The notes below the pieces were generated by a model. It saw nothing but the letters and a program-made list of their open reading frames with translations, was not told the origin of the DNA and did no database searches. DNA of 61,666 nt, filler included, from Jimgerdemannia flammicorona (Eukaryota): NCBI GenBank assembly GCA_003990765.1. It is 3 parts of 3 records of this genome, joined end to end, with 100 filler letters (N's around TTAATTAATTAA, not from the genome) between each part and the next. Parts side by side here need not be neighbours in the genome. Positions count along the whole stretch, not along the records: positions 20,601 to 41,086 come from RBNJ01001670.1; 2 more parts are not named here. One strand, given 5' to 3'. Below, one piece after another: positions 10,233-41,186 of the stretch. Each line of letters begins with the position of its first letter. Position 1 is the first letter of the stretch. The position numbers were made by a program, and so were the translations under genes.

Positions 10233-10736
10233 GTATATAAAGAAAACTTATTATTTTTTTAAATTAAACTGACTGAGGTTTATTCACTCTAGATACTGGG
10301 ATATTTATATAAGTTTGCTAGCTATAAGATGACTAAGTTAAAACTATAAGTTATTTTTTATAAATATCAAATCTTTCAATATCTACTAGAATTTTAATAA
10401 TTGCAAGGATTTCAATATTTGCTAAATCTTTAACAATTGTTAGAGTTTCTATATTTATAAAATATGACTGCTATTTGTGAGGCTAAACTATATTTGGAAA
10501 TTAGATTCAGATACTTTAATCCAATATCTATTCTCTTGATTCATATTTCTATTTCATACTATATATTATAATATCTAAGAAAAATAACCTTTTAGCTATT
10601 AGAATAAATTAAATAGATATTAAGACAAAACTCTATCCAGAAACTACTATAAGTTAAGAAAGATCAAGTTAGAAGACTTTTAAAAATAATATATTATATT
10701 ATATTAAAATATTAAAAATATAAATATATTAAATAT

Positions 10737-12336
10737 TGTAATGGTGATCTCAGAATGATGATATCAGTATAAGAGACAGTAATTCCTTACAAGCCACCAG
10801 ATTGAAGTACAAGAAGATCATATAGTATAACTCACCCAAGCTATAAGATGAGTAATGATGACTAACTATGAGTCATTGAGACCACAATATAGATATCTCA
10901 AGGAATATAAAAGAAGAATCAAGGAACTGCAGTAGTAGTAACTCAATAAGACCCACTAAATTCTGAAATAGTTCAAGGACTTATTATAAACAAAATACCT
11001 ACTGCTCACCCAACCTCAAGATTAAGGAACTACCAAGGTCTCTCAGTCCAGGAAAGGATATTCCAAGACATCTGAAGAGCCATAAGGACTTGCACAACAA
11101 GGACTCCTAGTGTCAACCTGAGTACTGGTGACCCTTATCATTATATTCTCTACTACTATAAAATAGAAACAAGAATCACCATTGTTACCAAATACCTCCA
11201 GATGTAGTAAGAATATGAAATAGGAAATCTCCTCTGCCAGGAATTCCCTCAAGCCAGTCCTTAAGAACTACAAGATGCCATTCTTATAGATATATATAAA
11301 ATAAGGACAGCTAAGAAGATTCATCAGATCTTCAGACATATATCATGATTGATTCCCAACTTAGAATATATCAGAGTCTCAGACTTCAGAGATCTGTCAG
11401 CCCATTATATCAATGTACTAGAAGCCATGGTGGCTGCAGAAGCCCAGTCCACTATCACCCTCAATAGTAATAAAGTAGAAGACTTCTGGTATCCCATCCT
11501 CCAGAACAACTCAGATCAGTTCCTATAAGGATTGATCTCAGTATTCCAAGGCCCAAGCATCCAGGTTAGACCTCCCTAAGACCCCACATTTGTTCCTAAT
11601 TTTGTGGAAGAGAACCTCATAGACTAGAGAGCCCCAGATCTCCTTACTCTCCCCACCACCACTGAACATAATGACATCATCAGCAATGATGTCATCCCAC
11701 ACAACATATATAAAATGCACAATATACATGAAATATGTGACCTATATAACAAGACAAATGAAATGTTTGCAGATCTCATCTCCTTCAGTGATGATGAGAA
11801 TGAAGCCCTTATGGTCCTGAACTTTCTGCTCTGAGTTCTTGGTAACACCAAATTCTGCCAGCATTCTTTTCCTATATAACAGTTAGTCCTTCCACTAGCA
11901 TTCTGATTGTGTGACTCAGAATTCCTCCAGCATCCTTTTCCTATACCACTGAATTCTACCAGCACTTTGAACTTGTGCAATTATCTGTACCAACACTGGA
12001 ATCTGTATCAAAAACTGTAGTTTTCTGTATTCTAATATTTTATTTGATTATTGAAATTTATATTTAGCCTTATATCTTAGCAACCATTAAATTATATTTT
12101 GTATAAATATCCCTCTTATTTCCTTTGAAATAAAGTCAGTCAAGTTCACTTACCCTCAATTCCTTACAAGCAATCTAAGAGATAACAAGACAGTTTAAAG
12201 TTAAGAAGTTTGAGGACTATAAGATGAGAATATACTCCAATAAGAACTTGCTTATAACAAACTTGTAGTTAGTCTAAAAGATATACCTTGAAGAGAATCT
12301 GATATATTTGAAGGACTCAGTGACCACTATGTGATA
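10737..12336 (+). repeat. Family B 5' LTR, with decayed U3 ORF at 10995-11834
   Basis: Direct repeat of 17067-18671 and homologous to 20601-21940. Confidence 0.92.
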
Positions 12337-14554
12337 ACTTGGTACTCATTGGCTGGTAATTTAAGATGAATCCCTTACTTTTAAGCTGAAAAACAAATAA
12401 TCACCACAATAACTACCCTGACTACAAGAGTCACCCCTGCAAGAATTTAAGACAAGATGGAAATGCATCCCCCCACATTCTATAGATACTACTGAAGAGT
12501 CAATCCTGATCTTCATTGAAGACTTTGAACAATTTGCCACTGTACAAGCCCTCAACATGGATGTACAATTGGCCCTTTTACCAGTTAGCCTCAGAGGACC
12601 TACCAGAGATAAGTTCAATACAGCTACTATTGCTAATACTAGTGCAGCCAAACTTGTCAACATGAAGACCTTCCTCAGAACTACATACTATATCAAAGAG
12701 ACCAAGCAAGCTCTCAAGAATCAACTCAACACTATATATCTACCAGAGACTCAGTGAAGATCCTAACTCATTCTATATCTGAATCTGCCACCAGATTGTC
12801 TTAGCTAGCTATGATGACCACCTCAAGGAACAAATAGTAGATTCAACCTTCCTCAAAGGAGTTCACTCTGAAATTGCCCTAGCAATCTAGTCTACCATAG
12901 CTACACTGACTCTTGATCAGAAAGTGGTCTTTGTACAGAGATATTGAACTGCCAGACACCTTACTAAACACTCAATAGAGAAAATAACTAGTATCAAGAT
13001 AGAGCCATCAAAGCCAACTAGTATCATGCCCACCACAGTTGTAAACAGACAACCATCCCCACCTACCCCCAAGGTGGCCAAAGCTGACTCAGTGGAGGAA
13101 CTTGCCAAGCAGTTTGCTGAGATAACTATATACTTTGGTGATATTGTTAGAGAAGTCTGAAGTGCCAATAGGAGACTAGTACAGAGATTTGTAGCTACTA
13201 TAGAAGAATGCAATATCACATGCTTCAGATGTAGAGAAGAAGGCCACTATGTAAAGAGTTATATGATCAAAACAAGACATAAAGCCCAACTAAGTAATGT
13301 TACCAGAACTAGAGAATAAACCAATATAGTAGTCATTGAGAAGATTGGTGATACTGATGATGAAGAATACTATAAAGAGTCTGAATTCTACCCTATCACT
13401 GAAGATACCAGAACCCAGTCCAAGCTCTATGACAAGAAAAGCAACCATAAGCCAGTTGGAAGACTAAAGAAGACCCCAGCTATCACTATTCAAAGTAAGA
13501 TCCAATCTAAGGAGATTGATCAAGATATGGAGTTAGATGAAGCTGTCTGCCAAATCATTGAAGACACTACTTCAGTCTCAGAAGAAAGTGAAAGCAAGAA
13601 GGAACAGAAGCTGCACAAGACCAAGATCCACCAGTATGATATCTACAAGGACCTCAAGAAATAGAAGGTCAATGCTACTTTTGGACAGCTAGCCAAAGTC
13701 CCTGCCTTCAGACAGCAGTTGAGAGTAGGACTTGTAACTACTGCCAAGAATCAAGAGTATAAGATTGTAGAAGCTCACAATACACAAGAAACATTTGAAG
13801 ACTTAGATGAAGAATCTGAAGGCCAGTGCAAGACATCAGCCTATATCTCATATCAGAATGAAGATTGTATCTTTGATGCCATCATTGATACTGGTGCTAG
13901 AGGATGTCTTATGAGTAAGAAGACAATTGACCACCTAGGCTGGAACATTGAAAAGTCCACCAAGATGATCTATGTCACAGCAGATAGTATATGAGCTATC
14001 CTCCTTGGCAAAATCTGAGAAGTCCCCATTAAGATAGAAGGAGCTACCATCCTAGTAGATGTGATTGTTACAAGAACCACTAACTATGACATTCTCATTG
14101 GCAATCAATGGCTTTACAAGGCTAAGGCCATCATTGACCTCAATGCCCAGAAGGTGCAGATCATCAACTATAGAGGAAGAAAGGTATGAGTCTCTATCAA
14201 TGTTCATAAAGGAGTTCTACCAGACATAGAGGAAGAAGATGAAGAGGATACAGAAGTCTTCATACACTTGGTGAACAAGAACAAGAATAAGACACCTAAG
14301 CTCACAGATGAGCAGTGATACAACAAGATCATCAATAGCTATACTCCTCAAGGAAGATGCCCTCATAGTACTAGGATGTACTGCTCTGAATACCTGAATG
14401 ACTGCTGGTTCTGTATCAGTGAAGTCAGGAAAATCTGCCAATAGAAGTATGAGCAAGAAGCTGCTGAAGTAAAAAGAAAAGCTGAAGAAGATGACCAGCC
14501 CCCAGAGCTTCAAGCTGACAGTGATGAAGAGGAGAAACAAGAACCAGACATCAC

Positions 14555-14965
14555 TCTCAAGGTCAAGAAGTTTTGCCCTAAAGCCAACATCCCAGAATAT
14601 AAGACTGAAGGAGTCATAGGAATAACTTGCCAGCATTTAAGATGCTACTCTTGAACCACAGATCACTACTCTACTTGGTATCAGAATTGGAGTCAAGTTG
14701 CCAGAGAACCATGCCAGAATTATCAAGACCAGGAGCAGTCTGGCCAAAGTGAAATCTCAGTTGAAGGAGGAGTAATTGACCCTGATTACACTGGTGAAAT
14801 CTTCCTCATAGTCAGGAATCACAACCCCACCACTCCATTCAAAGTCAAGAAGCATGACAGAATTGGCCAGATGCTGATCCATGAAATCAAGAAGCCTAAG
14901 ATCACCAAAGCCATTAAACTCATTAAGACTAAGAGAGAAGAACAAGGCTTTGGATCTACTGAAAA
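14555..14965 (+). pseudogene. Retroelement dUTPase (family B)
   Basis: KTRSSLAK, GGVIDPDYTGEI, DRIGQML and QGFGST motifs, with frameshifts. Confidence 0.9.
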
Positions 14966-17066
14966 AGGAGTCTATACTGCTACCAAGATTACCAAACTTG
15001 AGCATGAGAAAGACAAGGACCAGAATAAGCACACATATATCATTAGAGAGAACTTTCCCCTAGAAGAACAACTTCTCAAGATTTTGCACCAGAATGAAGA
15101 AGTACTTGCTACAGACTTCAGGGATATCTACAATCAAGAACTCAAGTACTATCATGAAGTTGACACTAGCAATACTAAGCCCATCTACTAGAAAGCTAGA
15201 TCTATACCACTTGTTTATAGAGAATGGCTATGAGTAGAACAGAACTATGAGTCATATAAGCTCAAATACTTAGTAGTAGTTTAGACAGTAAACAAGTTCC
15301 ACTACTACCTAGCTGGGAAATACTTCACTATTCAAACAGACCATTCTGCTCTTGCCTGGCTATTCCACACTCTGAACTCCAAAGGAATATATGTCAGACA
15401 GATCTACAGACTGCAAGAGTATAACTGTACTGTCAAGTACTGCTCAGGGAGAACCAACACCAATGCTAATGTACTCTCAAGAATACTCCAAAACACCTCC
15501 ATCAATACTATTCAACATGAATAAGGAGTTATACTATGGATTAATCAGCTATCTTGGGCAGCAGAAGATGCCCAACCACCTCAAACTCTGGACAATTACT
15601 ATCATCAACCAGACTTGGAAACAGTTTGAACTAGACAACACTACACTCAGAAAAGGAGGAAAGCTTGTAATATCTGAATACAAGAAGTATCAAGTAATGA
15701 AGGAAGTATACAAACAAGGATACCTAAGAGGAACCAATATATATGATAAGACAAAAAGAACTATATAGTGGCCCAAGATGGAAGAAGACCTATACTAATT
15801 TATCAAAGAGTGTGACAAGTGCCAAAAACAGAAACAAGATCAGCAAGACCAGACATCTGGATCACCAAGAATTGAGCCTACCCTCTTCCATCATATTGCA
15901 ATAAATATCATTGGGTCACTTCCAGTAACACTATCAGGAAACCACTACATTATAGTTATTTTAGAACTCTTTACTAAATGGATAGAAGCAGGAGTATTAC
16001 AAGAAGCCAATGCCCTCTCTATAGCTGACTTTCTACACTAAGAAATCATCTGCTACTACAAGACACCAAAGCAAATTACCACAGATCATGGCACAGAATT
16101 TGTCAATGAATTCTACAAGATAATATATCAAAAATACAAGATTCAGTACATCAATACCACTATATACCACCCTCAAGGAAATAGACAGACAGAGAGAACC
16201 AATAAGACTCTCAAGAACATTCTGGTGAAGATCTCAAACATATACAAGAATTGGGATAACTACCTCCCAACTGCCCTCTCTGTCCTACAAGATATATGAT
16301 CACAGAGTACACACTTTACCCCAAGAGAACTGCTCTTTGGAGAAGAAGATTCTGATGGCACCTCAGCCAAAAAACTAGACCTAACTTGGAAATGAGTTGA
16401 CTCAGAAATCTGGACACTATACTAAATCAGGAAGAAGGCTGAAGATTACATCATCAAGTTATAAGCACTGATGAGGAAGAATGCAGAAAAGAATCACAAG
16501 ATCATCCAAATCAGAGAAAAGGTCCTACTATATCAAAATATGGTAGAAGCCTCATAGTCATGAAAACTGGAGTCCAAATGGGAAGGACTCTTTTATGTGC
16601 AAGATATCAAGAGAACTACCTTCTAGCTTAGAAAACTCATAGAGATTATACTATCTACCACAGTATACAGGAACAGACTCAAGAAGTACCATAAACCTAT
16701 ACAAGAGAAGTAAAACATAATGACTACCCATGAGGTTCTAGTCTATAAATCATAACAGTATATTCTGTGACCAGCTGGCAATCTGTCTGGACTATTCTCT
16801 AAGAGATATAGTACCAGCAACTATTCATCTGTGAGACTTTCAAAGCTAGAGGAGTTCAAACCATCAACTGATTGGTCAAGATCAGAATTGGGCCCTTGCT
16901 ATATGAAGGGAGCAACTCTTCACCATTATACCAAAATATATAGAGAAGATGCCAGCTCATAAATATCACTTTTTGACCCCCTGCCAGAGGTTATAGGATT
17001 AGCAAATTTTTCAGAACTGGACCAATGAATAAGAATGTTCAAGAAGATCCTTATTCAGGAGAAAGA

Positions 17067-18671
17067 TGTAACAGTGATCTCAGAATAATGATATCAGTAC
17101 AAGAGACAGCAATTCCTTACAAGCTACCAGATCAGAGTATAAGAAGATCATATGGCATAACTCACCCAGGCTATAATATGAGTAATGATGACCAACTGTA
17201 AGTCATTGGGACTACAATACAGACATCTCAAGAAATATAAAAGAAGGATCAAGGAACTGCAGTAGCAGCAACTCAATAAGACCTACTAAATCCTGAAATA
17301 GTTTAAGGACTTATTATAAACAAAATGCCTGCTGCTTGCCAAACCTCAAGATCAAGGAACCACCAAGGCCCCTCAGTCTAGGAAAGGATATTCCAAGACA
17401 TCTGAAAAGCTATAAGGACCCATACAACAAGGATTCCTAGTATCAACCTGGGTACTAGTGATCCTTATTATTATATTCTCTACCACTATAAAATGGAAAC
17501 AAGAATTACCATTGCTACCAAATGTCTTCAGATGTGGCAAGAATACGAAATAGGAAACCTTCTCTACTGGAAATTCCCTCAAGTCAGCCCTCAAGAGCTA
17601 TAAGATGCCACTCCTATAGATATACATGAAATAAGGACAGCCAAGAAGATTCATCAGATCTTCAGATATGTACCATAGTTGATCTCCAACTTGGAATATA
17701 CCAGAGTCTCAGACTTCAGGGATCTGTCAGCCTACTGTATCAATGTACTAGAAGTCATGGTGGCTGCAGAAGCCCAGTCCACTATCACCCTCAATAGTGA
17801 TGAAATAGAAGACTTCTGGTATCCCATCCTTCAGAACAACCCAGATCAGTTTCTGTAGGGATTGATCTCAGTATTTCAAGACCCAAGCATCCAGGTTAGA
17901 CCTCTCCAAGACCCTACATTTGTTCCTTATTTTGTGGAAGAGAACCTCATAGACTGAAGAGCTCCAGATCTTCTCACTCTCTCTGCTGCTGCCAAATATA
18001 ATGATGTCATTAGCAATGATATCATCTCATGTGATATATGTGAAATACATAATATATACAAAACACATAACCTATGTGATGAGATGAATAAAACATTCAC
18101 AGATCTCATCTCCTTTAGTGATGATGAGAATGAAGCCCTCATAGTCCTGAACTTTCTGCTCTGAGTTCTTGGTAATACAAAATTCTGCCAGTATCCTTTT
18201 CCCATATAACAGTTAGTTCTTCTACTAGCATTCTGATCTTGTGTGACTCAGAATTCTTCCAGTATCCTTTTCCTATACCACTGAATTCTACTAGTACTCT
18301 AAACTTATATAACTATCTATACCAATACTAGAATATATACCAACAACTGTAGTTTTCTGTGTTCCAGTATTTTATTTAATTATTAGAATTTATATTTAGT
18401 CTTATATCTTAGCAACTATTGAATTATATTTTGTATAAATATCTCTCTTATTTTCTTTGAAATAAAGTCAGTCAAGTTCACTTACTCTCAATTTCTTGCA
18501 AGTAATCTAAGAGATAATAAGACAGTTTAAAGATAAGAAGTTTGAGGACTATAAGACCTTAGGAAGGTACTCCAATAAGAACTTACTTATAACAAACTTG
18601 TAGTTAGTCTAAGAGATATACCTTGAAGAGAATCTAATATATTTGAAGAACTCAGCAACCACTATGTAATA
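17067..18671 (+). repeat. Family B 3' LTR, with decayed U3 ORF at 17325-18164
   Basis: Follows the polypurine tract; direct repeat of the 5' LTR. Confidence 0.92.
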
Positions 18672-19332
18672 ATATATACTTAAAGTTAAAAATAAAAAAA
18701 ATCTATAATATCAATATTAACTATTATTACTTAATAGATTTGGAATAATATTTAATGACAAACTTAGTTAATAATAAAATTTAAATATATTTAATTTATT
18801 ATATAAATTATTAAAAAATAAAAAATAAAAAATAAAATAACTTATATTTTTAGTTATATTTATTATTACTATAATTATTATAAGCTATATAAATATATAA
18901 ATTATAATATTATATCATATTTAGCTAGATTATTTTTATAGTTAGTTACTGTAATAGTTTCTAAGTTTATATTAATAAAATATTTTCAAAGATAAATTAT
19001 ACAAAATAAAAAATAATATATATAATAATTACAACATAACTATAAATTTTTATATAAAATAGTTTTATTCATCATAACTACTATTTATTTTAACAGAATA
19101 TCTTCTGGTAAAATTTTTGAAAAATTATAAATATAAAAATATAGTGCACCACACTTATACTCAACCTTTTGATTATAACTTTATATTGTACTTAATAAAA
19201 AAATAATAAAAATTATAAATTAATAGAAAATCCTATTGAGTTTAATCAAATAGAGAGTTTTTTTTGATATTGTTTATAAATTTTAGTAAATTAGTTTTTT
19301 ATATCAATTATCACTATTTTTTATATTTATAT

Positions 19333-20472
19333 TAAGGCCCGCCACAATTTCGGCCTTAAATCCATATACTTTTGGCCTTAAATCTATAGTATTGTGACAT
19401 ACTTTTCAAAGCCAAAAAATCAAAATCTGGCTTTAAAAAGAAATTGTAAGTCAACCTGCTCAACCCGCTTTTCAAGGTGCTTTCGAGGCCGCTCAAGGCT
19501 GCCATTTGAACCTACTCAAGACCGCCGTTCGAGGCTGCTCAAGGCCGCCGCTCAAGGCCGCTAAGGCCGCTCAAGGCTGCCATTCGAGGCCGCTCAAGGC
19601 CGCCGCTCAAGGCCGCTCAAGGCCGCCGCTCAAGGCCGCTCAAGGCCGCTCAAGGCTGCCGTTCGAGGCTGCTCAAGGCCGCTGTTCGAGGCCGCTCAAG
19701 GCTGTAGTTCGAGGCTGCCGTTCGAGGCCACTCAAGGCCGCCGCTCAAGGCCGCTCAAGGCCGCTCAAGGCCGCCGTTCGAGGCTGCTCAAGGCCGCCAT
19801 TCAAGGCCACTCAAGGCTGCAGTTCGAGGCCACCGTTCGAGGCCGCTCAAGGCTGCCATTCGAGGCCACTCAAGGCTGCCGTTTGAGGTGTGAATGGCAA
19901 GCAAGCATGAACGTAAACGCTGTTCACGCCTGCTCGTCATTCACACCCGTCTGCCATTCACGTTCACGTCCGCCATTCACGTCTGCTTGCCACTCGGTGA
20001 GTTCATTTATTAAAAATGCTTAAACAGGATTATGTCTATAATGGTAAGCTGTATAATAATAATAAACAAAGGCCGGAGGGTGAGAGAATTGACAGTCAAC
20101 TCAATAACTCGAATAGCGGAGCAACAACTCAATCACTTTGAATTTCCACATAAGGTCATAACTGAACGGCAGCCTTGAGTGGCCTCGAATGGTGGCATCG
20201 AACAGCGGCGGCCTTGAATGGCTTCGAACATTGGCCTTGAGCGGCCTCGAATGGCGGCTGTGAGCGGCCTCGAACGGCGGCCTTGAGCAGCCTCAAACGG
20301 TGGCCTTGAGTGGCCTTGAACAGTACCCTTGAGCAGCCTCGAACAGTGCCCCGAACAGCAGAGCGGCCTTGAGCGGGTTGACTTATTATGGCTGGCTTAC
20401 AAATTCTTTTTAAGTGCTAGAATTTGTGCTACCATGTGAATGAATTATCCCCATAGGGGGTCGGGGCTTTAA
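19333..20472. repeat. Foldback-like element with inverted GGCCGCTCAA minisatellite arrays
   Basis: GGCCGCTCAA/GTTCGAGGC units at 19485-19890 and their reverse complement at 20160-20380. Flanking sequence is also inverted (GTAAGTCAACC...CCCGC vs GCGGGTTGACTTA). Confidence 0.7.
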
Positions 20473-20500: not shown

Positions 20501-20600
20501 NNNNNNNNNNNNNNNNNNNNNNNNNNNNNNNNNNNNNNNNNNNNTTAATTAATTAANNNNNNNNNNNNNNNNNNNNNNNNNNNNNNNNNNNNNNNNNNNN
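20501..20600. other. Assembly gap with artificial TTAATTAATTAA spacer
   Basis: N run with a central all-frame stop linker; the same structure occurs at 41087-41186. Confidence 0.97.
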
Positions 20601-20879
20601 GACTGACTTTATTTCAGAGGAAATAAGAGGGGTATTTATACAAAATATAATTCAATGGTTGCTAAGATATAAAGCTAAATATAAATTCCAATAACTAAAA
20701 CTACTAAGTTCCAGGGCTGGTATTGTTGTTTGTACAGGTTCAGGATGCTGGCATTATCCAGTGTTATATCAAAATGCTGGTGCTGGAACAATTTCGCGTC
20801 ACCTCAGAATACCGGTGCTAGTATTATCTGGTGTTACATGAGAATACCGGTGCTGGCATTATCCAGTGTAACAAAGAAC

Positions 20880-21698
20880 TTAGAGCAGAAAGTTCAGGAC
20901 CATGGGGGCTTCATCATCATCATCATCACTGAAGGAGATGAGATCTGCGAATTCATCATGCAGGTCGCGCGTCTCGCGTACCTCGGGTATGTCGCGTGGG
21001 ATGACGTCATCGCCGATGACGTCATCACGTTCGGCGGGGAAATCGGGGACAAGATTTGGAGCTCTCCAATCTATGAGGTTCTCTTCCACAAAATAGGGGA
21101 CAAATGTGGGGTCTTGGGGGGATCTAACTCGGATGCTTGGGCCTTGGAATACTGAGATCAATCCTTGCAGGAATTGGTCTGGGTTGTCCTGAAGGATGGG
21201 GTGCCAGAAGTCTTCTACTTCTTCACTGTTGAGAGTGATAGTGGACTGGGCTTCTGTAGCCACCCTGGCTTCTAGTGCATTGATGCGGTGAGATGACAGG
21301 TCTCTGAAATCTGAGACTCTAACATACTCCAAGTTGGGAATCGACCATGGTGCATGCCTGAAGATCTGATGGATCTTCCTAGCTGTCCTCGTTTCACGTA
21401 TATCCATGGGAGTGGCATCTTGTAGCTCTTGGGTGCTGGCCTGTGGGAACTCCCGGCAGAGGAGGTTTCCTATTTCGTACTCCTGCCACATTTGGAGGCA
21501 TTCGGTGGCGATGGTGATCCTTGTTTCCATTTCACGGCGGTAGAGGATAAAGTGATAGGGGTCTGCAGTTCCCAGGTAGACACTAGGAGTCCTTCTTGAG
21601 CGGGTCTCCATGGCTCTTCTGATGTCTTGGAACATCCTTTCTTCAACCGAGGTGCCTTGGTGGTTCCTTGACCTTGAGGTTTGGCGGGCGGCAGGCAT
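20880..21698 (-). CDS. LTR(U3)-encoded protein of unknown function, 272 aa
   Basis: Uninterrupted ATG-to-stop ORF. It aligns end to end (MPAA...MVLNFLL*) with decayed copies in two other LTRs, and the frame is kept in the 3' LTR copy despite length differences. Confidence 0.8.
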   Translation of the reverse strand: MPAARQTSRSRNHQGTSVEERMFQDIRRAMETRSRRTPSVYLGTADPYHFILYRREMETRITIATECLQMWQEYEIGNLLCREFPQASTQELQDATPMDIRETRTARKIHQIFRHAPWSIPNLEYVRVSDFRDLSSHRINALEARVATEAQSTITLNSEEVEDFWHPILQDNPDQFLQGLISVFQGPSIRVRSPQDPTFVPYFVEENLIDWRAPNLVPDFPAERDDVIGDDVIPRDIPEVRETRDLHDEFADLISFSDDDDDEAPMVLNFLL

Positions 21699-21778
21699 TT
21701 CGTTTGTGGTAAGTCTTTGAGCTAATTTGGGATTGGTGGTTCTTGTTGGTTGCTGCTACTGCAGTTCCTTGATCCTTC

Positions 21779-21822
21779 TTTTATATTCTTCAGGATACTT
21801 GTACTGTGGTCACAATGACTCA
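21779..21822 (-). promoter_or_regulatory. Candidate internal promoter for the U3 ORF (TGAGTCA + TATAAAA)
   Basis: AP-1/Gcn4-type heptamer at 21816-21822 and TATAAAA at 21779-21785, ~80 bp upstream of the ATG. TATAAAA is present in all three LTRs and TGAGTCA in two. Confidence 0.4.
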
Positions 21823-21940
21823 CAGTTGGTCATCATTGCTCATCTCATATGCCGTATGATCTTCTTGTGCTTCGATCTGGTGGCTTGCAAGGAAAGGCTG
21901 TCTCCTGTGCTGATGTCATCATTCTGAGGTCACCGTTACA

Positions 21941-23205
21941 CTACATACAGCTAGCCCTCAAGAAGCTCATGGAGCAAGGCCTCTATATCAAGCCCAAGAA
22001 GTGCAAGTTTGCAGCTCAGGAAATTGCCTACCTAGGACACCCCATCAATCAGACTGGAATCCATATAGATCTTATAAAGATTGAGGCTGTTGCAGTCTAT
22101 CCAAGACCCAGAACAACCACAGAAGTCCATACCTTCCTTGGACTGGCCTCCTACTATAGAAGATTCATCAAAGGATACTCCAATATTGCAGCACCTATCT
22201 ACAAGCTACTCAAGAAGGAGACCAAATTCGAATGGACTAAGAAATACCAAGAAACCTTCAATAAACTCAAGATCAGGTTGACCCAAGCACCCATTCTCAG
22301 AAGACCAGATTGGAACTTAGAGTTCATCCTGCAGACAGATGCAAGTGCTATAGGACTTGGAGCAGTCTTAGCTCAGAAGAAAGATAGATATGAATATGTC
22401 ATCTCCTATACAAGCTGAGATACCTGCAGAGCAGAACAGAACTATGAGTCATGCAAGCTTAAATACTTAGCAGTAGTTTGGGTAGTAGACAAGTTCCACT
22501 ACTACCTAGCTGGGAAATACTTCACTATTCAAACAGACTATTCCGCTCTTACCTGGTTGTTCCACACTCTGAACTCCAAAGGAATATATGTCAGATAGAT
22601 CTATAGGCTGCAAGAGTATAACTGTACTGTCAAGCACTACTCAGAGAGAACCAATACTAATGCTGATGCACTCTTAAAGACACCCCAAAACACCTCCATC
22701 AAGACTATTCAACATGAATAAGGAGTTATACTATGGATTAATCAGCTACCTTGGGCAGTGAAAGATACCCAATCACCTTGAACCCTGGACAATCACCATC
22801 AACCAGACTTGAAAACAGTTTGAACTAGACAACACTATACTCAAAAAAGGAGGAAAGCTTGTAATACCTGAATATAAGAAGTATCAAGTAATGAAGAAAG
22901 TACATGAACAAGGATACCTAGGAGGAATCAACACATATGACAAGGCAAGAAGAACCACATGGTGGCCCAAGATGGAAGAAGACCTGTGCCAATTTGTCAA
23001 AGGGCATGACAAGTGCCAAAAACAGAAACAAGATCAGCAAGATCAGGTATCTGGGTTATCAAGAATTGAGCCTATTCCCTTCCACCACATCACAATGGAT
23101 ATCATTGGGTCACTACCAGTAATACTATCAGGAAACCACTACATTATAGTTATTGTAGACCTCTTTACCAAATGGATAGAAGCAGGAGCATTACAAGAAG
23201 CCAAT
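21941..23205 (+). mobile_element. Family B pol fragment: RT C-terminus, RNase H, integrase N-terminus
   Basis: KPKKCKF...YLGH, FLGLASYYRRFI, LQTDASAIGLGAVL, WWPKME. 22430-23205 closely matches 15236-16010. Confidence 0.92.
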
Positions 23206-23560
23206 CCCCCAGCCACAGCATCTTCAGCCCCTATGCTCACATCCCTCACCTGGGTACTGCTCCCCCTACCAATGCTAGCCTTGTCCTTTCCCTCAGCAGC
23301 ACCAGCCCTAGCTCCAACTGGCCATCTACTCTCCTTTACCTTATCTGCAAAGCTAGGGGGGCCAGGCCTTCCCCCACTTCTACCTGACACCAGTCCTTTG
23401 CCATATCCCTCTCTACCCTTCAACCCTCCAAAGGCCCCTATCTCCAGTCTCCCAGGTCTACCTAAATTAGCACACTCATCTGAACTCTTGCTTGATGATA
23501 TTTTTATAGTACCTTTTCTCTGAGTTGTATCAAAAACCATTATCTGAAGTTGGTGTAATA
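23206..23560 (-). mobile_element. LINE 5' fragment (ORF1 N-terminus)
   Basis: Gly-rich frame with SFADKVK, like TFADKVR in the LINE at 1308-1880. Confidence 0.65.
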
Positions 23561-23754: not shown

Positions 23755-23785
<31 letters not shown>

Positions 23786-26700
23786 TTTTTTTTTTTTTTT
23801 TTTTTTTTTTTATAGTCTCTTGGACTCTATCATTTATTACTAGTCTATTAATAAATTTACAGTATCTCCTCCCACTACCTGATCCCAATAGGAGAGCCTC
23901 TCCCCATATCATCATAAAGAAAGACCACTATCTCACCCACTACCCCCACCCTCCCCCCACTCTGCCTACAGATATTTTCCACTAAGCAACGTCTTCGACC
24001 ACCTTACAACTCTCAAACCAAGCCAACAGCCCATCAAGGTATCCTCCATAAGGCAATGCCAATGTAACAACTAGGCCCCCAAGCCTAATCTCCTTCCATT
24101 CTCAAAGACAAATAGCCAGTAACTGACCAGTCCCACCCAAATCACCAAAACCCAGCCTAAAGTAAGTCATTTCTTTCCCACTCCCCCAACCAGTCTATTC
24201 CTCAAATCCTCCCACCGACCCTATATGCCATCACCCTGACATACTACTCTCAAGTGATCCCCAACAACCTGCCAAAAGTTATTAAGTACCTCACACTCTC
24301 CCAGCCAATGTTCAGGCATCTGCACATATCTTTCTTCCTGCTCTATATTGTGACACTCCTCACAATCAAAGCAACCCCCCTTGATAAGGTGACCTAAGTG
24401 GAAGTTGAGCATTATATTCCTCCTCAGTATATACCACCAGACCACCCAGTACTTCAGTGGCATCCACCTCCTCACCTCAGCACTCCAGGCCCAAATGCTA
24501 TGCCAGTTCCACTCTTCTCTGATACCTACTCTCTGCCATCCACTAGGTCACAGATCCTAACCCTAACTCTAACCCTTTGACAGTCTATCCCATCATCAAT
24601 ATCAAACTCAATTAAGGAAATGCCTCTCAGCAGCACTCAGTTCCATCTCAACATTGCTGGGTCCCAAGCCATCTCTTCTTTATTACCCTATCAATACATT
24701 CCAATGCAATATGCTCCCTCTGCTACTCTCTACCAGAAGCCTTTGTAATGCAATTGTACAGTATTCTGAAGCCCAACCAATGAAAGAAGATCTCTTATTG
24801 AGCCTCTTGATGAGAACCTCATCTCTCAGACCTTCTGCAATAGAGGAATCCAACTGCCCCCTCACAATTCTACTACTCTCTTTAACCACCATGCTCTCAA
24901 GCAATGTAGTCTCTTTGGAAAGTCAACCAGCCTAAGCCCTCCTCTTGCTACCAGTAAGAATAAGACCTCCCAGCCAATCTGACTCCTTCTTCTAGCCCAG
25001 ATCTACTCCTTGGCCAGCTTCATCAGTCATTTCACTACTCAGGCTAAAAAGTCCAGATGATATACCAGATACCTCAGCTTCAGCAGCCAATAGGTGTTCA
25101 AAATCAAGACATACCCTGCTAGAGATAAGTGGTGACCCCCCTAGCTCTGCAGGGCCTCCTCCCAAATTCCAACCCTTTGCTCTCACCAGAGCCTAGGTAG
25201 AACTGATCTATATACTGACAAATAAATGCTCAAGTACTGCACTACCTCACCAGTAGGGATGATTGTTCTGATGACATCCCCTCTCACCAGACCATTACCC
25301 AATACCATTGTTTCACACTTATGCTAATTAAGCTTAGCCCCAGAGTTCTCCTCATACCACTCTATCATCTCCTTGAGCTCCTCAATATCCACAATGGACT
25401 GCAGGCCAACCACTATATCATCTGCAAAGGCCCCCACTTTCCACCCAATTCCAAAGACAGAGAGTACCTCTATCTTCTGCCAGATTCTGTCTATCAGGGG
25501 CTCCAGGGAAAGGGCATATAGAATGGGGGACAGTGGGTCCCCCTGGAGCACCCCCCTACCCAGGGGAAATGATACCCTGCTATGTCCATTACATATGAGC
25601 ACAGCCCTACTCCCTTCCAGTAGACTGATCATTGCTGACTGGAACTGGTGTGGTACCCTAATCCTATCCAAACTTTTGCTAGCCAGACTTGCTGCACCCA
25701 GTCATAAGCCTTCTCCTGGTCCAAGAAGACCAGTCACCCATCTAGTCTACAAGCTTGTGCCCCTTCAATAACTCCATATACCCAGGCTGTACCATCTCTA
25801 ATGAGCCAGCATCCTACAAAGCCCCTCTGCTCAACTCCCAAGACTTGCTGGGCCACCTTCTGAAGTCTTGCAACCACCACCTTAGTCACCAACTTTCTGT
25901 CCATGTCTAGCAGCATAATTGGCCACCAGTTCCTCTAGTCCTCTCACCTTCCTTTGTTCTTATAAAGCAGTATCACCAGCCTCAGATCCTGCTCTCCCAC
26001 CCATCTCCCTATTGGTAGTATAAGATCATACAATGCCATCATCTCACTCAGTACTCCTGGAACTTCCACCATTTTCTTCCAGAAGTCCCAGGGCAGACCA
26101 TCCTCTCCAGGTGCTATACCTGGAGTTGTCATAGCAAGAACCTGGTGGATCTCTTCCTCTTGTACTGACAACACTAAGTCACCCAGCCCATCCACTCATG
26201 GAGGGTGCCAATCTTCCAATACCCGGTCAATGGTAGCAGCATCTGCCCCACCCTCCTCCTCACTCTACAATCCACTCCATTACTCCTTTAATGTACCAAG
26301 AATGTCTTGTATACCATGCACCAGTATACCATCAGAGTCAAGCACCCCCTCTCACCTTTGCTGTACCCTTCTTGCCTGAAGGGCTCTCATGAGATACTTA
26401 GAGGGCCTCTCCCCTTCCTCCAAACATTGCCAGTGAAGCTGTGCTGCCAAGCTCTGTACCTTTGCCTCCTCATCATCCTGCAGCACCTGTTGTAATTCAC
26501 CAATCTCCAATTTCGCCCTCAATAATCTCCAATCCTCTCCCCCCTCTACCATCATTAGCCCTGCCCAATCTTCCAAGAGTCTAGTCAGTCTAACAGAAGC
26601 CCATCTCACCCATCACTTCCTCTGCTTCCCAGTCTCCCTACCAGCCTCACTCCAGTAGACCCTGGTCATCTCTTTCATCCTCATCTACCAAACACCAACT

Positions 26701-27575
26701 GGGGTGCCCTCCCACCTCCAGCTCTCTACCCTCAGTTGAATGTCCTCCACCCACTCATCCCACCAGATTCTATCATCTAATAAAGAGAAGTTGAGACACC
26801 AATGTCCAGGCCCATCCCCACTCTCCCCAAAATGTCTCTGCCCTAATAACCCTCAATAATCTGACCAAGGATACCATTCCACCTTCAATGACTTCCAAAC
26901 ATCCAAGCCCCAGCAGCTGGCCATCAATATCCAGTCAATCCTTGTCCCCAAACCCTTTGCCCAGTATGTGTATACCATCCTATCTCCCCAATACTCCCTA
27001 CCAGCATCTATCAGAGCACTAAGCCTTTCCACATTCTTCCACACTGCCAACCCTCCACTCCTACTCTCAGCTCCCCAGCCCTGCTGCTCAGCTATACCAT
27101 CAGCAGTTACATCTGGATTTTTTTCCAGATTGGCAGTCTTATTGCCATCAGCCATCATGTTCACTCTAGCCACTATACCTCCAGTACCACTGCCCCCACT
27201 GCTAAGGGCTACTCCCCCATAGACTGCTGCCTTCTCCATCTCTTTGCCTTTTCTCAACCATCCCTCCAGCCCAGATGCCTGCCACCTCTCCTTCACTACC
27301 TCTATAAAACTTGCCCTCCCAGACCCCTGTCCTCCACCACCTCCTCCTCCCCTCCTATATCCTCCCATCAGTAGCCCCCTCATACTCCCCCCCAGACTGG
27401 GGTCTTTCCCCACATGCTGCCAGTTGAATGCACTAGGGCCACCCTGCCTAATATGCACCTCAGATTGCCTATTGGTCACTATGTTGTTAGTCTCTTTTCT
27501 CTAAAAACAATATTGTAAGTATCTTTCAAAGATTGTATAACCTGAATGGTACTGGAGAAAGATAACTAAGTATTT
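23755..27575 (-). mobile_element. L1/Tx1-like LINE with internal ORF1-EN deletion
   Basis: Poly(A) tail (T run 23755-23811); RT motifs APGEDGLP, QGDPLSP and AFADD; EN end RIDWIL...WSDY; imperfect TSD GAAATA(G/C)AGTT. Confidence 0.9.
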
Positions 27576-28640
27576 AGTAGAAATACAGTTCTTCTTATTT
27601 CAGTTTGAGTTTGGTACTTCAGTTTCCTTTTATGATAGTATAGTATACCAAAACTAGTTAAAGAGGTTCAGGGTTGATCTCATGGTTGTAGTACTTCTTC
27701 TAGTATTCTTGTGTCTTAACAGTAAGTTCTTATACTTGCTAGTATATTTTGTATAACTAGGCGATCTCTTCAGTAACTTGTTTTGTGATCTTATATGTAG
27801 TATCTGAATTAGTTCTAAGGGTGATCTGTGATTTTGGTGGCTTAGAGGTTGTGCACTTATACTAACTAGCACTTGGTTAGTAGACTTATTATATTGACAT
27901 AGATTATAGCTGGCAATATAGTTCTTAATTTCCTTGACCATGCTTGGCCAATGATAGCAGTATTGGATATTCTTGACAGTCTTCTCAATTCCCAGGTGAC
28001 CAGCAAGAGAGGAGTTATAGTGTTCTTACAAAACCTTATAACATAGGTTTATATTTTCAGGTAGATAAACTTGGTCTTGATAATAGATCAGGTTATTCTC
28101 AACAGTATATATATCCTTGAGCTCATTCAAGAAAACTCTAGTAGTGACTGTGTCTTCTTTATAAGCTTGCCTGATTTGGTCTAGATTCTGATACTAAGGT
28201 AACTTATATAATTATAATAGGTCTGGACATCTTGATAAGACATCTGGTACTACAAGTGTCTTGTAAGGCTTGTAGATGATCTTCAGGTTGAAGGTTTGAA
28301 GTTTGAGGCTCCACTTGGCTTATAAGTATAACAGAGTAGGCTGGGTGTTAATGTACTTAAGAGATTAATAGTCAGTAATAACATCAAACTCAATATATTC
28401 TAGATAGTATTGCCAGTGGTCTAGTGTATATATTATTGCTAGTAGTTCCTTTTTGTAAGTGGCTAACTTCTGTTTAGCTGGGACCAACTTGTAGGACTTA
28501 AAAGCAATAGAGTGATATTCTTTGCCATCATCTTGTGACAATACTACTATAATGGCAAAATTTGATGCATCAGTGGTGATCATAAATTTTAGATCTTGAT
28601 CTGCATTATGTAGGACTAGAATATAGGTCAGATAGTTCTT

Positions 28641-31600
28641 TTTTTTTTATTTTTTTTTTATAGTAACTTGGACTTCTTTAATTGGACTATCTAAAACACT
28701 ATTACAATGAAATTATTTACAACTACTATAATAATATATCATTTTAAGTAGGTTCAGTCACCCAACTCCTTCCTTCTATCTGATCCCATACTCCTCCAAC
28801 ACCAGGTGCCCTTGGCTCTACTGAATAATGTCTTGTACCTTCTGCAAGGCCCCTGGCTGAAGCCACCTCCCCTGATACCACCACCCTTGTACCACCTCCC
28901 AAAGAAGCCCCTTCCACTGCTCCACCAGCTCACTAATCCCTAACCATGGGTCTCGCTCAAACACCCATCTCCAATGTGCTGTCATCAGGACCCAGACCCC
29001 TAGGACTCGACCCAGGCCCCCCCAGATATCTCCTATCTCCCCCACCAGCTGGCGCTTGACCACCAGACTGACAGAATCTCCAGTCCTTCTGCCAGCAGAG
29101 TGCCAGTAATCTTCCAAGTATTGCCAGAACCCTTCTACACCAGGGCAGGCTGCCAGAATATACTCTAGTGACTGAACCACCTCACCATCTACCTCACTGC
29201 ACCACTCACAGTCCTGATAGCCATCTACCTCCATCTATTCTGTCTGATACCCCAACATCACATTCCTTCTCAGGAAGTGCCACTATACAACCCAGTACTT
29301 GGGGGGTACTATCTTGAGCAAGGTATCTCCCCAACTCTAGATTCTGCCCCACTCCCAGCCTTCACCCAATCTTGCCTTCTGCCAACCTGCTGGCCATCTC
29401 TCCAGAGGGCCAGGCCTGATCCACTCCATTGCCTCAACCAATGAGTACTCCTTCAGACCATGACCACTAATATAGAGGTCTCCCAATCACCACCATCTCT
29501 GCTCAGGATCCTCACCATCCTCCATCTCCAGCCCTGCCAACCCCATGGCCAGCCAGGCCTCCACCATGCCCCACCAGAATCCCTTATACTACAATTAACT
29601 GATATTTCCAACCTGAAGCAAACCCTGCATATCCTTTCAAACCTCACCATGGGGGCAGAATCAAATCTCCCAATTGTTCATTATCAGCCTACCCCATCTC
29701 CCTTCTCCTGTCTCAGCCAATTGACACCCCCACCAACCCCTGAGTACCTTCAGCCATTGCCTGAAGTCCACCAACCCCAGGCCACCATCCGTTGTCCTCA
29801 TCACCAGTGTATCCCACCTGATCTGTGGCTGCTTCCCATACTATAACCAGCCTTCTACAATCTTCTTCAGCCACTGCACTACCCATTCTGGAAAGTTCAA
29901 GTGATATCCTAGATACTACAATTTAGGCAGCCAATAGACATTCAAGACCACAATCCTGCCTATCAAGGAGAAACTCCTCCCAGACCATCTAGTCAAAGCA
30001 CCTTCCAACTTCTGAATTATGCCACTCCACCACTCCTTCAGCAGGACTGTTTCATAAACTGAGAACCAAATACCTAGATATCGAACTGCACTTCCAGTAG
30101 CCACCAATTATCCAAATTGTCCATGTTCCCCCAGACCAGCACCAAGTTCCATTGTCTCGCACTTGCCCCAATTCAGTTTTGCCCCTGCCAGTCTCTCATA
30201 CTATCCAACCCCTTCCTGCAAGAGGTCCACATCCTCCATGCTACCCAGCCCAACCACCATATCATCTGTGAATGCACCCAGCTTCCACACTATACCACCC
30301 TTTTGTAGTCCAGAAAGCCACCCCTTCAGCCATGCTAGCAATGGCTCCAGAGAGAGTATATAAAGGAGGGGGGAGAGGGGATCCCCCTGTTGCACACTGT
30401 GCCCCAAAGAAAACTCCAGGCCACTCCATCCATTCATCATAACTGCTGCTCTGCATTCCTGCACCAAGCCCATTAATCTCCCTGCTTCTACTGCTCCAAA
30501 TCCAACCTTTCTCAGAACAGTCTCTAAGTAAATCCACCACACTCTGTTATAGGCCTTCTCTTGGTCTAGGAAAACCATCCTACCATCCACCTGCCAGCTC
30601 CTATAGCTCTCTAAGACATTCTGCACCCAAGTTGTACTATCTCTGATCTGCCTTCCTTTGACAAAGCCTTACTGCTCTTCACCAATCAGCATGCCTATAT
30701 ACTGCTGCATTCTTCCTACTAGGATCTTCAAGACCAGCTTTCTATCCACATTCAGCAGCATAATAGCTTGCCAATTCTGCCACACCCACTGATCACCCTT
30801 TTCCTTATATAGGAGGGAAACTAATCCCAAGGAACCATTGCCAATCTAGCTGCCCTCCTTCAGAACAAAATTGGCCATCTCCACCAACCAGCTGCCAAAC
30901 TCTGCCTTGAACTCCTTCCAGAATTCCCAGGGCAACCCATCCTCCCCAGGTGATGAACCAGTCTATGTCTTCTGCGACACCTCCAAAACTTCATTCAAAG
31001 ATACTTCACCCATCACCACCCCCCTTATCTCAGGTACTGCTGCCACTGGCCAAGTGTCTACCATATTGCCATCATCCTCCCCAGGCACCACATTCTCTGC
31101 ATGCTCCCCTCCATCCTGCCAGAGAGCCTGCCATTGTCCTGAGACCTCTCCCAACATATCAGCAATCTCTGTGACCTCCATTCCATCTTTGTGCAGTATG
31201 GAGGCCCAACTGTATCACACCCTTCTGGCCTTCAAGATTCCCAACAGATATTTAGTTGGCCTCTCACCCTCCTCCAACTATCTTGCCCATAGTCTGGCAA
31301 ATAGACCATCTACTGCCCTATCCTTGGCAACCCTTAATTCAGTCTGTAGCTCTGCCACCTCTACTGCCAGCTGGTGACACTTCTCCCTAGACAGGTTCCC
31401 CCCTTCCATTAGCTTCAATCGCTATCTCAGCCCCTTTTCGACCCTCCTTGCCTTATCCTTCTGCTCCTTCCCAGCTACTTCACCAACATCCCTCCAATAA
31501 GTACCAGCCAAATGTTTGAATCTACCCCACCATTCTGCTATTAACTGCCCATCATTCTGCCACCATATTACTTCCTATTGCACAATATCTACAAACCAAT

Positions 31601-41086: not shown

Positions 41087-41186
41087 NNNNNNNNNNNNNN
41101 NNNNNNNNNNNNNNNNNNNNNNNNNNNNNNTTAATTAATTAANNNNNNNNNNNNNNNNNNNNNNNNNNNNNNNNNNNNNNNNNNNN
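41087..41186. other. Assembly gap with artificial spacer
   Basis: N run with TTAATTAATTAA. Confidence 0.97.

Follow-up and report, generated by a model that had tools for sequence, protein, structure and literature searches.

An intact open reading frame (ORF) of 272 aa lies inside a long terminal repeat (LTR) of a Ty3/Gypsy retrotransposon in the Jimgerdemannia flammicorona genome and appears to be a genuine protein-coding gene kept by selection. In one Ty3/Gypsy lineage the gene forms a constant part of the LTR, with which it is doubled at each retrotransposition. The explanation that fits best overall, and which we consider probable, is a selected gene in the U3 region of this LTR, with its own TATA box and with an accessory or regulatory product. 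The window analysed here is the whole stretch of 61,666 nt, in which parts of three contigs are joined end to end by artificial spacers (Table 1).

The ORF is located on the minus strand (20880-21698, ATG to TAA), and these coordinates confirm those given in a preliminary description of the stretch. According to the mapped positions of all three, it is situated wholly between the start of the LTR (TGTAAC, 21940-21935) and a block consisting of TATAAATA and AATAAA (20640-20608). It begins 242 nt into the LTR and stops about 240 nt short of the main TATA box. From the LTR start to the TATA/AATAAA block there are roughly 1370 nt, of which the ORF, in sense orientation, takes up about 820. The frame closes 57 nt upstream of the ATG, which is still within the LTR (stop-to-stop 20880-21755). 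The ORF is not an internal additional ORF (aORF) between LTR and gag/pol, but lies inside the LTR itself, and therefore any LTR copy, including lone ones, could carry the gene.

Table 1. Coordinates of the LTR copies, element domains, predicted signals and spacers in the window. Promoter and poly(A) signals are called from motifs.
Feature	Position	Strand	Remarks
LTR-borne ORF	20880..21698	-	272 aa; homologues; dN/dS ~0.2 (single sequence pair, dS close to saturation)
LTR copy with intact ORF	20601..21940	-	TGTAAC at 21940; blastn, three-way alignment
Main promoter/poly(A) block (putative)	20608..20640	-	TATAAATA 20640-20633; AATAAA 20613-20608
Tandem repeat	20746..20873	.	35 nt x 3.7 copies; between ORF stop and main TATA box
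Upstream TATA-like box GAATATAAAAG	21778..21788	-	87 nt before ATG
pol fragment, second family copy	21945..23520	+	RVT_1 end, RNase H, integrase zinc finger, core start
5' LTR, contig-1 element	10737..12337	+	ORF remnant 10995-11834: 8 stops, ATG -> ATA
Internal region, contig-1 element	12338..17066	+	gag to integrase domains
gag zf-CCHC	13161-13316	+	contig-1 element
Protease (RVP_2)	13665-14186	+	contig-1 element
dUTPase	14655-15188	+	contig-1 element
RNase H end (RT_RNaseH)	15285-15521	+	contig-1 element
Integrase core (rve)	16042-16296	+	contig-1 element
3' LTR, contig-1 element	17067..18672	+	ORF remnant 17325-18164: 6 stops; PPT directly upstream
Artificial contig joiner	20501..20600	.	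N44-TTAATTAATTAA-N44; second at 41087-41186

Three copies of the LTR were found in the window. The intact copy ends at 20601, the contig edge, with about 230 nt of the LTR end missing, in an assembly that looks to be of metagenome type. Because the contig edge cuts this copy, it may be either a solo LTR or the 5' LTR of an element. It shows 75-76% identity to 10734-12141 and 17067-18473 (blastn) and sits reversed within the reverse transcriptase (RT) region of a second family copy. The pol fragment of this second copy is split by the LTR and is 88% identical to 15232-16015; the fragment on contig 2 comprises the RVT_1 end, RT_RNaseH_2, Integrase_H2C2 and rve.

The two further LTRs form a direct repeat of 1606 nt with 86.9% identity on contig 1. 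This element had been regarded as complete, but the domain search revealed an internal region without RT and without the first half of RNase H. Combining both fragments, the domain order of the family is PR-(dUTPase)-RT-RH-IN. The polypurine tract (PPT) AGGAGAAAGA is located at 17057-17066, directly before the 3' LTR, and contigs of runs X1 (5) and X8 (4) carry the same PPT-like flank at the LTR start (21940). With terminal direct repeats, an integrase after RT and a PPT before the 3' LTR, the family belongs to Ty3/Gypsy (Metaviridae). After 12337, TGG motifs and no clear tRNA primer binding site were seen in this hypermutated copy, and a candidate 5-bp target-site duplication (AATAT, 10732-10736 / 18670-18674) is present in AT-rich flanks. 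The 5' LTR is hypermutated, with 0 CpG observed versus 49 expected. The older copies in the window are visibly ruined by C>T hypermutation, which we read as silencing.

Comparison of the ORF with the window by tblastn returned exactly 10995-11834 (66.7% aa identity) and 17325-18164 (68.3%), where the preliminary description had already seen the ORF with stops in both contig-1 LTRs. The in-frame stops of these remnants result from C>T/G>A hypermutation. The intact copy differs from the contig-1 copies by 4 ORF indels, each with a length divisible by 3. At E<=1e-3, nothing beyond the three LTR copies was detected in the window with the ORF, and a search with all 14 family proteins revealed no additional copy either (best stray match E=0.02).

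These 14 homologous proteins (P0001-P0014) are metagenomic, lie at 27-93% identity and have the Met-Pro start and the core motifs in common. A source is listed for 13 of them, in all cases a JGI/ENA metagenome and never NCBI/UniRef. The suggestion that the protein recalls a family from Glomeromycotina thus found no counterpart among the homologues. Absence from the annotated proteins of that group is weak evidence, because ORFs borne by transposable elements are often masked prior to annotation. Conserved blocks of the family are WxEYEIG, HQIFRHAPWxIPNL, PILQDNPDQ, FQGPxI, PQDP..VPYF and a C-terminal ..LNF; full-length members from distant clades (P0007, P0009 and P0011) start with MP(A/P)..R. 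An LTR context was established for 2 of about 4 clades, represented by the window and by L001, a metagenome contig of 1345 nt with an intact 323-aa homologue in its LTR (56% identity over the full-length alignment, 63% in the best tblastn segment). L001 is collinear with the window LTR from the upstream TATA box through R/U5. A scan of metagenome contigs gave 61 pattern matches, which led to one confirmed locus; none of the 72 pattern matches in viral contigs and none of the 27 in prokaryote genome contigs was confirmed.

The N-terminus of the protein is basic (residues 1-50, pI 11.2) and its tail is acidic (residues 216-272, pI 4.05, last residues LNFLL). A helical core and an acidic tail had been predicted before, and both fit the AlphaFold models, in which the helical core is followed by a disordered acidic tail (full-length pLDDT 52). 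Both models, full-length and core (pLDDT 67.2, pTM 0.62), are of modest confidence and gave no functional lead. Segment 20961-21020 of the tail has almost no cover in any run and is taken as a putative hypervariable linker. The searches revealed no relative of the protein family in any known family or fold: 0 Pfam families and 0 hits of the PDB profile search were obtained at E<=1, and no usable match came from the ESM Atlas. Foldseek against PDB with the full-length and core models (best E 1.3 and 0.83), BFVD (best E 0.11) and two wide VIA-align searches (best Z 4.7 in each) remained at the noise level for helical models. No homology to the Sag, Nef or Bel families was found in the Pfam, PDB profile and BFVD searches. 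A C-terminal F-x-x-L after acidic residues and an L-I-S-F before acidic residues resemble known classes of short linear motifs; both are too short to test and carry no weight here.

We propose that the protein may have an accessory or regulatory role for the element and that its tail would recruit a host partner. Its predicted layout comprises a basic N-terminus, a folded helical core and a tail, acidic and disordered, in which two short motifs are conserved. That the function is specifically transcriptional activation or anti-silencing is a tentative and rather doubtful assignment. The main alternative to it is a dosage-dependent control of copy number, in which the protein would be an element-encoded repressor that damps transposition in proportion to LTR number, similar to p22 of Ty1. 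The gene would be present on every LTR, solo LTRs included, and its dose would scale with copy number; moreover, the sequence does not discriminate activation from repression. However, the ORF shows no similarity to the Gag of the element (tblastn against the window, E<=1e-3), and it is more typically in activators or adaptors that an acidic hydrophobic tail is combined with a basic N-terminus, which is a weak argument. A repressor is unlikely in our opinion.

For the accessory gene proposed here, the substitution pattern points to purifying selection on the ORF. In comparison with the L001 homologue, dN/dS was 0.33/1.48 over all 271 aligned codons, 0.25/1.49 for 214 core codons (NG86) and 0.26/1.15 by maximum likelihood, i.e., a ratio of about 0.2 for a single sequence pair (window copy and L001) with dS close to saturation. 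The preliminary description had singled out a dN/dS near 1 together with frameshifts as the pattern speaking against a gene; this pattern is absent, as the ratio is low and the indels are in frame. Between the window copy and L001, ORF codons 1-215 share 69% nucleotide identity with 3 gap columns and the TATA/AATAAA block 74%, whereas the stretch from the stop codon to this block shares 47% with 80 gap columns.

Copies in public soil runs show the same preference for silent changes. Among the best-supported 40 of 270 variant positions in four such runs, the ORF accounts for 23. Third codon positions make up 15 of the 23, and 15 of the 23 are synonymous (binomial p=0.0017). Four entries among the listed variants are ORF indels, namely +9, -3, and a +1 and a -1 that lie 9 nt from each other on a single contig. 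In run X1, 2164 contig pieces align to the stretch. None of the runs listed with the stretch is recorded as RNA; contigs of X13 and X20, two runs tentatively taken as RNA, match parts of the LTR with 85-99% likeness, which has no bearing on expression. Of 99 differences that are common to both contig-1 LTRs and so arose before insertion, 53 affect third positions (p=3e-5). For differences between the contig-1 LTRs, which arose after insertion, this applies to 47 of 120 (p=0.1), and the two shares differ (Fisher p=0.023).

These data bear on the possibility that the ORF is a decaying host gene or gene fragment which a single transduction brought into the LTR of one Gypsy lineage and which is carried along passively, with intact copies that are merely young. 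LTR retrotransposons do capture host fragments, no function or fold was found for the protein, and many copies are dead, including P0012 with its R to C/H/W changes. Passive decay is, however, difficult to reconcile with a low dN/dS where the non-coding U3 is no longer alignable, with a start and a C-terminal motif kept across clades at 27-45% identity, and with a third-position excess that is present before insertion and absent afterwards. In addition, no non-LTR form and no longer, fused or host form was found (0 among 8000 candidates of 600-2000 aa, weak evidence). We consider this reading improbable.

The selected U3 gene which we prefer is also compatible with the signals around the ORF, where the U3/R border and both promoters were called from motifs alone. 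The TATAAATA box, followed by AATAAA about 20 nt on, probably marks the U3/R border, and the spacing of this block is unchanged in L001 and both contig-1 LTRs. The 35-nt repeats look like the enhancer-like repeats of a U3 region. The three window copies and L001 do not differ in the upstream GAATATAAAAG box (4/4 sequences covering the box), which represents a candidate internal promoter for the ORF. This is in agreement with the earlier reading of the ORF as an integral part of a Ty3/Gypsy LTR, upstream of a conserved TATA/poly(A) block and thereby in U3. With the gene in U3, its place on the genomic RNA would be the 3' end, as in the case of sag of mouse mammary tumor virus (MMTV). It would most likely be expressed from its own TATA box GAATATAAAAG, with an end at the LTR poly(A) signal, and each LTR would then amount to an independent transcription unit of about 1.2 kb. 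Alternatively, expression could proceed through a spliced subgenomic mRNA.

The same signals could be read differently, with a genomic RNA that starts from the upstream TATA (about 21755) and an ORF within a very long R, as an ORF0-like first cistron repeated at both RNA ends. The conservation of the upstream box in all four covering sequences is consistent with this, and the ATG-proximal position would allow simple cap-dependent translation. However, the second and better conserved TATAAATA box about 20 nt before AATAAA corresponds to a short-R layout, and it is preceded by tandem repeats that are typical of U3 enhancers. An R of about 1.2 kb would be unprecedented, and polyadenylation would have to skip the 5' copy of AATAAA, which lies 1.1 kb from the cap. 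We regard a long R as improbable. A chance ORF or an assembly artefact, i.e., an accidental open frame or a chimeric contig at the LTR/ORF junction, is hardly credible, although several contigs are joined in the window and the intact copy lies at a contig end, since an ORF of at least 272 aa occurred in 0 of 5000 Markov-1 simulations of a 1340-nt LTR (simulated maximum 237 aa), the layout is common to three copies on two contigs and to L001, and 14 homologous proteins as well as the contig pieces of run X1 were found.

LTRs are usually regarded as non-coding control regions, and the textbook exceptions are retroviral (MMTV sag and the overlaps of nef and bel). Lentiviral nef and foamy-virus bel/bet encode accessory or regulatory proteins at the 3' end of the genome that reach into U3. 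They resemble the present gene in the regulator role proposed here, but begin upstream of the LTR and overlap U3 only, whereas the present ORF is wholly inside the LTR. No sequence or fold similarity to nef or bel/bet was detected with Pfam and BFVD. The closest analogue appears to be MMTV sag, which is a complete accessory ORF inside U3, as proposed for the present gene, is copied with every LTR and is often retained in endogenous copies. In the sections consulted of PMC3026287, the MMTV LTR is given as about 1.3 kb, compared to 1.6 kb here; both are unusually long because of the accessory ORF inside. The same sections describe expression of sag from spliced mRNAs whose acceptor site lies shortly before the ORF (PMC3026287), whereas the conserved TATA inside the LTR suggests a separate promoter here. 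In contrast to MMTV, the host is not a vertebrate, which rules out a superantigen function, and the element is a Ty3/Gypsy retrotransposon in which no env was seen. Sequence similarity to sag is also lacking (0 Pfam families at E<=1).

Extra genes have been described in LTR retrotransposons outside the LTR. The aORFs of plant and other elements, such as Ogre ORF1, the env-like ORF of Athila and antisense ORFs, are lineage-specific, conserved within clades and of unknown function, and they sit in the internal region, either from the 5' LTR to gag or from pol to the 3' LTR, according to the parts consulted of PMC7264820. The present gene, in contrast, sits in the LTR itself, and the wording “within/inside/in the LTR” occurs 0 times in the searched parts of that article. 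In the available text of PMC2864245, no LTR-borne gene is described, and “add. ORF” appears only in a figure legend with no readable location. A literature term search, with subscription journals outside its scope, returned MMTV sag and retroviral cases and no LTR retrotransposon with an LTR-internal gene. Phrase matches in PMC6673714, bioRxiv 10.1101/2025.09.22.674508 and bioRxiv 10.64898/2026.05.04.722472 did not refer to LTR-internal genes and were rejected.

A selected gene wholly inside a Ty3/Gypsy LTR, if true, would mean that accessory genes in U3 are not specific to retroviruses. It would also give a possible coding role to solo LTRs, the commonest remnants of such elements, and would imply that routine repeat masking conceals a class of expressed proteins. 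Because gene dose would follow LTR number, the element could have a route to sense or control its copy number or to counter host silencing, which is testable. A wider reading, which is possible and which we put forward with reserve, is that each LTR is an autonomous gene (TATA, ORF of 270-340 aa, poly(A)). Its product would found a new protein family with no known fold relatives and would be the first U3-encoded regulator reported from an LTR retrotransposon other than a retrovirus, be it a trans-activator, an anti-silencing factor or a copy-number sensor. If true, the element would therefore seed the genome with expressed copies of an accessory protein, solo LTRs included.

The backbone of the element has a known parallel in fungi. 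Its dUTPase follows the protease, as in PosPlaTy3-5 of Postia placenta, in which a dUTPase is located between PR and RT according to the available text of PMC2864245.

A reading frame of 272 codons, running from ATG to TAA, was identified on the minus strand of contig 2, inside the LTR of a Ty3/Gypsy family. Its length was not reached in any of 5000 first-order Markov simulations of a 1340-nt stretch, the longest six-frame ORF being 237 aa. Because the stop-to-stop frame begins at 21755, within the LTR, the ORF cannot be an extension of pol. The preliminary description had placed the same protein twice on contig 1, which tblastn confirmed at exactly the positions proposed, 10995-11834 (66.7% identity) and 17325-18164 (68.3%). 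Both of these copies are located in a 1606-nt direct repeat (10737-12337 and 17067-18672, 86.9% identical).

The region between the contig-1 repeats encodes, in the same orientation, the zinc knuckle of gag, a protease of retroviral type, a dUTPase, the RNase H end and an integrase core. This element had been regarded as complete, which does not hold: from the dUTPase to 15232 it lacks the reverse transcriptase (RT) and the first half of RNase H. The contig-2 LTR, which starts at 21940 and reaches the contig edge at 20601, sits in reverse orientation within the pol of another family copy. The interrupted fragment is 88% identical to 15232-16015 and encodes, in this order, an RVT_1 end, RNase H, an integrase zinc finger and the start of an integrase core. 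Since the integrase follows the RT, the family was assigned to Ty3/Gypsy. The intact LTR copy stops at this edge, about 230 nt short of the LTR end; it could be solo, or it could have been the 5' LTR of an element lost from the assembly.

Features of the LTR-borne ORF, its LTR, the contig-1 Gypsy element and the remaining window
Feature	Position	Strand	Remark
LTR start, TGTAAC	21940	minus	contig 2
TATA-like box GAATATAAAAG (TATA1)	21788-21778	minus	87 nt upstream of ATG
LTR-borne ORF	21698-20880	minus	ATG at 21698, stop codon 20882-20880
35-nt tandem repeat	20873-20746		3.7 copies
TATAAATA box (TATA2)	20640-20633	minus	
AATAAA	20613-20608	minus	
Polypurine run AGGAGAAAGA	17057-17066		immediately upstream of second repeat
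dUTPase domain	14655-15188		downstream of protease in contig-1 Gypsy element; Pfam E=6e-12
LRR protein, 580 aa	46088-47830	minus	contig 3; F-box-associated LRR families; long intron-free ORF
BTB + SPRY protein, 443 aa	48367-49698	plus	contig 3; long intron-free ORF
Contig joiners N44-TTAATTAATTAA-N44	20501-20600, 41087-41186		adjacency across them artificial; contigs 1-20500, 20601-41086, 41187-61666

A TATA box about 20 nt ahead of AATAAA is the arrangement found in short-R retroelements. On this reading of TATA2 and AATAAA, with the border taken from the motifs, the ORF would occupy about 60% of U3. In the contig-1 copies, about 230 nt of R/U5 lie downstream of AATAAA. All four sequences covering the site of the GAATATAAAAG box conserve it, and a conserved leader follows.

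The contig-1 LTRs are heavily hypermutated and differ from the contig-2 copy at about 280 positions each, mostly through C>T (97 and 104) and G>A (81 and 77) changes. They retain 0 and 1 CpG, with about 49 expected, and C>T changes have affected about 55% of the CpG, 29% of the CpA, 24% of the CpC and 14% of the CpT sites. Between the two LTRs, which have diverged by 13%, 192 of 200 differences are transitions. Such a pattern suggests that, after insertion, the element (10737-18672) was subject to a RIP-like or methylation-driven process. The ORF copies carry 8 and 6 in-frame stops, 12 of these 14 being CAA, CAG or TGG codons of the contig-2 copy altered by C>T or G>A alone, and all four indels relative to the intact copy are divisible by three (3, 9, 12, 3). 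Both observations indicate that the frame was open before mutation. Among the metagenome homologues, P0012 has His, Cys or Trp at six positions where its close relative P0011 has Arg, a signature of CpG deamination; the same decay process affects this distant clade of the family. PMC2864245 describes fungal Gypsy elements with a dUTPase after the protease. Such a backbone and the RIP-like hypermutation would fit a fungal host, with neither being decisive. The sequence occurs mostly in soil metagenomes, plus two organisms.

A second LTR lineage was found in L001, a metagenome contig of 1345 nt and the sole confirmed locus among 61 pattern matches. It carries an intact homologue of 323 aa (56% identical in full-length alignment) and is collinear with the LTR over a stretch that takes in the upstream TATA box, the TATAAATA/AATAAA block and part of R/U5. 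At the nucleotide level, L001 and the window copy are 66% identical between TATA1 and the ATG, 69% over codons 1-215 (3 gap columns), 46% in the tail, 47% between the stop and TATA2 (80 gap columns) and 74% in the TATA2/AATAAA block. It is the coding core and the two signal blocks that are conserved. For this pair, dN/dS was 0.33/1.48 over all 271 aligned codons, 0.25/1.49 over 214 core codons (NG86) and 0.26/1.15 by ML, giving an omega of about 0.17-0.22 from one sequence pair with dS near saturation.

Copy variation was analyzed by comparing the stretch with the contigs of four public sequencing runs. One run, X1, yielded 2164 pieces, 326 at ≥99%, 717 at 95-99%, 876 at 90-95% and 245 below 90% identity; it is possibly the sample of origin and therefore not independent support. 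The ORF holds 23 of the best 40 of 270 variant rows, with 15 of the 23 at the third codon position and 15 synonymous (p=0.0017). Among the rows listed, four indels fall in the ORF: +9, -3, and a +1/-1 pair 9 nt apart within one contig. Of 99 differences common to both contig-1 LTRs, 53 are at third positions (p=3e-5), compared with 47 of 120 between the two LTRs (p=0.1; Fisher p=0.023 for shared versus between-LTR differences). As judged from these substitution patterns, this indicates selection while the lineage was active, then roughly neutral decay after insertion. A dN/dS near 1 with frequent frameshifts, named beforehand as speaking against a gene, appeared in none of the selection tests run. 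The ORF is a real gene that belongs to the LTR, runs in its sense direction and has been kept by selection in two or more diverged LTR lineages.

Protein searches revealed 6 homologues from 508 candidates (5.8 billion proteins), 5 in an exhaustive HMMER pass (1.84 billion representatives) and 13 from 5061 candidates in a profile search, in combination 14 proteins (P0001-P0014) with 27-93% identity. Full-length members of distant clades share a Met-Pro-(Ala/Pro)..Arg start. The blocks WxEYEIG, HQIFRHAPWxIPNL, PILQDNPDQ, FQGPxI and PQDP..VPYF recur, as does a C-terminal ..LNF.. behind the acidic run. Of the 13 proteins with contig data, 12 come from contigs 567-1625 nt long, a size range in which assemblies break at repeats. 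A resemblance to an expanded Glomeromycotina family, suggested in the preliminary description, found no support: all 13 homologues with a listed source are JGI/ENA metagenome proteins. In sequenced genomes, such ORFs could be hidden when repeats are masked ahead of annotation.

As a whole the protein is acidic (pI 4.7), with basic residues 1-50 (pI 11.2) and a strongly acidic stretch from 216 to 272 (19 D/E versus 4 K/R). The AlphaFold models, of modest confidence (pLDDT 52 for the full length; 67.2 and pTM 0.62 for the core alone, from 16 sequences), show a mainly helical core containing a small beta hairpin, and an unstructured tail. No Pfam family was found for the protein and no PDB sequence relative for the family profile, both at E<=1, the ESM Atlas gave no usable match, and no longer fused form was found. 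Fold searches stayed at noise level (best E 1.3 and 0.83 for Foldseek against PDB and 0.11 for BFVD; best Z 4.7 for VIA-align). Within the libraries searched, the protein family is therefore new.

In layout, MMTV sag, a complete ORF located in U3, comes closest; lentiviral nef and foamy-virus bel only overlap U3. According to PMC3026287, the MMTV LTR is unusually long (about 1.3 kb) owing to sag, and sag mRNA is spliced at an acceptor that shortly precedes the ORF in the 3' LTR. The LTR-borne ORF has no homology to sag, and sag function cannot apply here. Extra ORFs of plant LTR retrotransposons, as described in PMC7264820, differ in lying in the internal region, and the phrases 'in/within/inside the LTR' are absent from the full text of this review. 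Term searches of a library with few subscription journals turned up no LTR retrotransposon that carries a gene within its LTR. The finding would be a U3 accessory gene, but in a Ty3/Gypsy retrotransposon and with a new protein family.

The gene probably lies in U3; in the genomic RNA it would then be located only at the 3' end, behind pol, and would need its own mRNA. The best promoter candidate, from its conservation and position, is the GAATATAAAAG box. Paired with the AATAAA of the LTR, this box would turn every LTR into an independent unit of about 1.2 kb that could act equally from 5', 3' and solo LTRs. Alternatively, the protein could be translated from a spliced subgenomic RNA, as for MMTV sag. 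With its basic N-terminus, folded core and acidic disordered tail bearing two conserved short hydrophobic motifs, the protein might be a nuclear adaptor or regulator recruiting a host factor. Activation or anti-silencing of the element, as previously proposed, is possible but less likely than not. A dose-dependent repressor, i.e., copy-number control, appears rather unlikely, and the remaining probability falls to other accessory roles.

In the remaining window, the only host-like genes seen are the LRR and BTB + SPRY ORFs of contig 3. On contig 2, a poly-T run of about 55 nt (23757-23812) is followed by about 10 kb of strong strand asymmetry (24000-34000; also 1-2000 on contig 1), with a GC skew of -0.3 to -0.5, a C-rich plus strand and 44-50% GC. 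Related pieces occur at 361-660/24258-24557 and, inverted, at 378-743/40282-40647. The region, in which an ORF at 26853-27500 has no Pfam match, is possibly a long minus-strand non-LTR element. The otherwise AT-rich end of contig 1 contains a GC-rich 23-nt tandem array of about 15 copies (19482-19888) with an inverted copy at 20206-20344. At 58277-58479, outside any rDNA unit, a 200-nt rDNA fragment that is degenerate or has an internal deletion matches eukaryotic SSU rRNA (Rfam RF01960, 78 bits, model positions 34-594).
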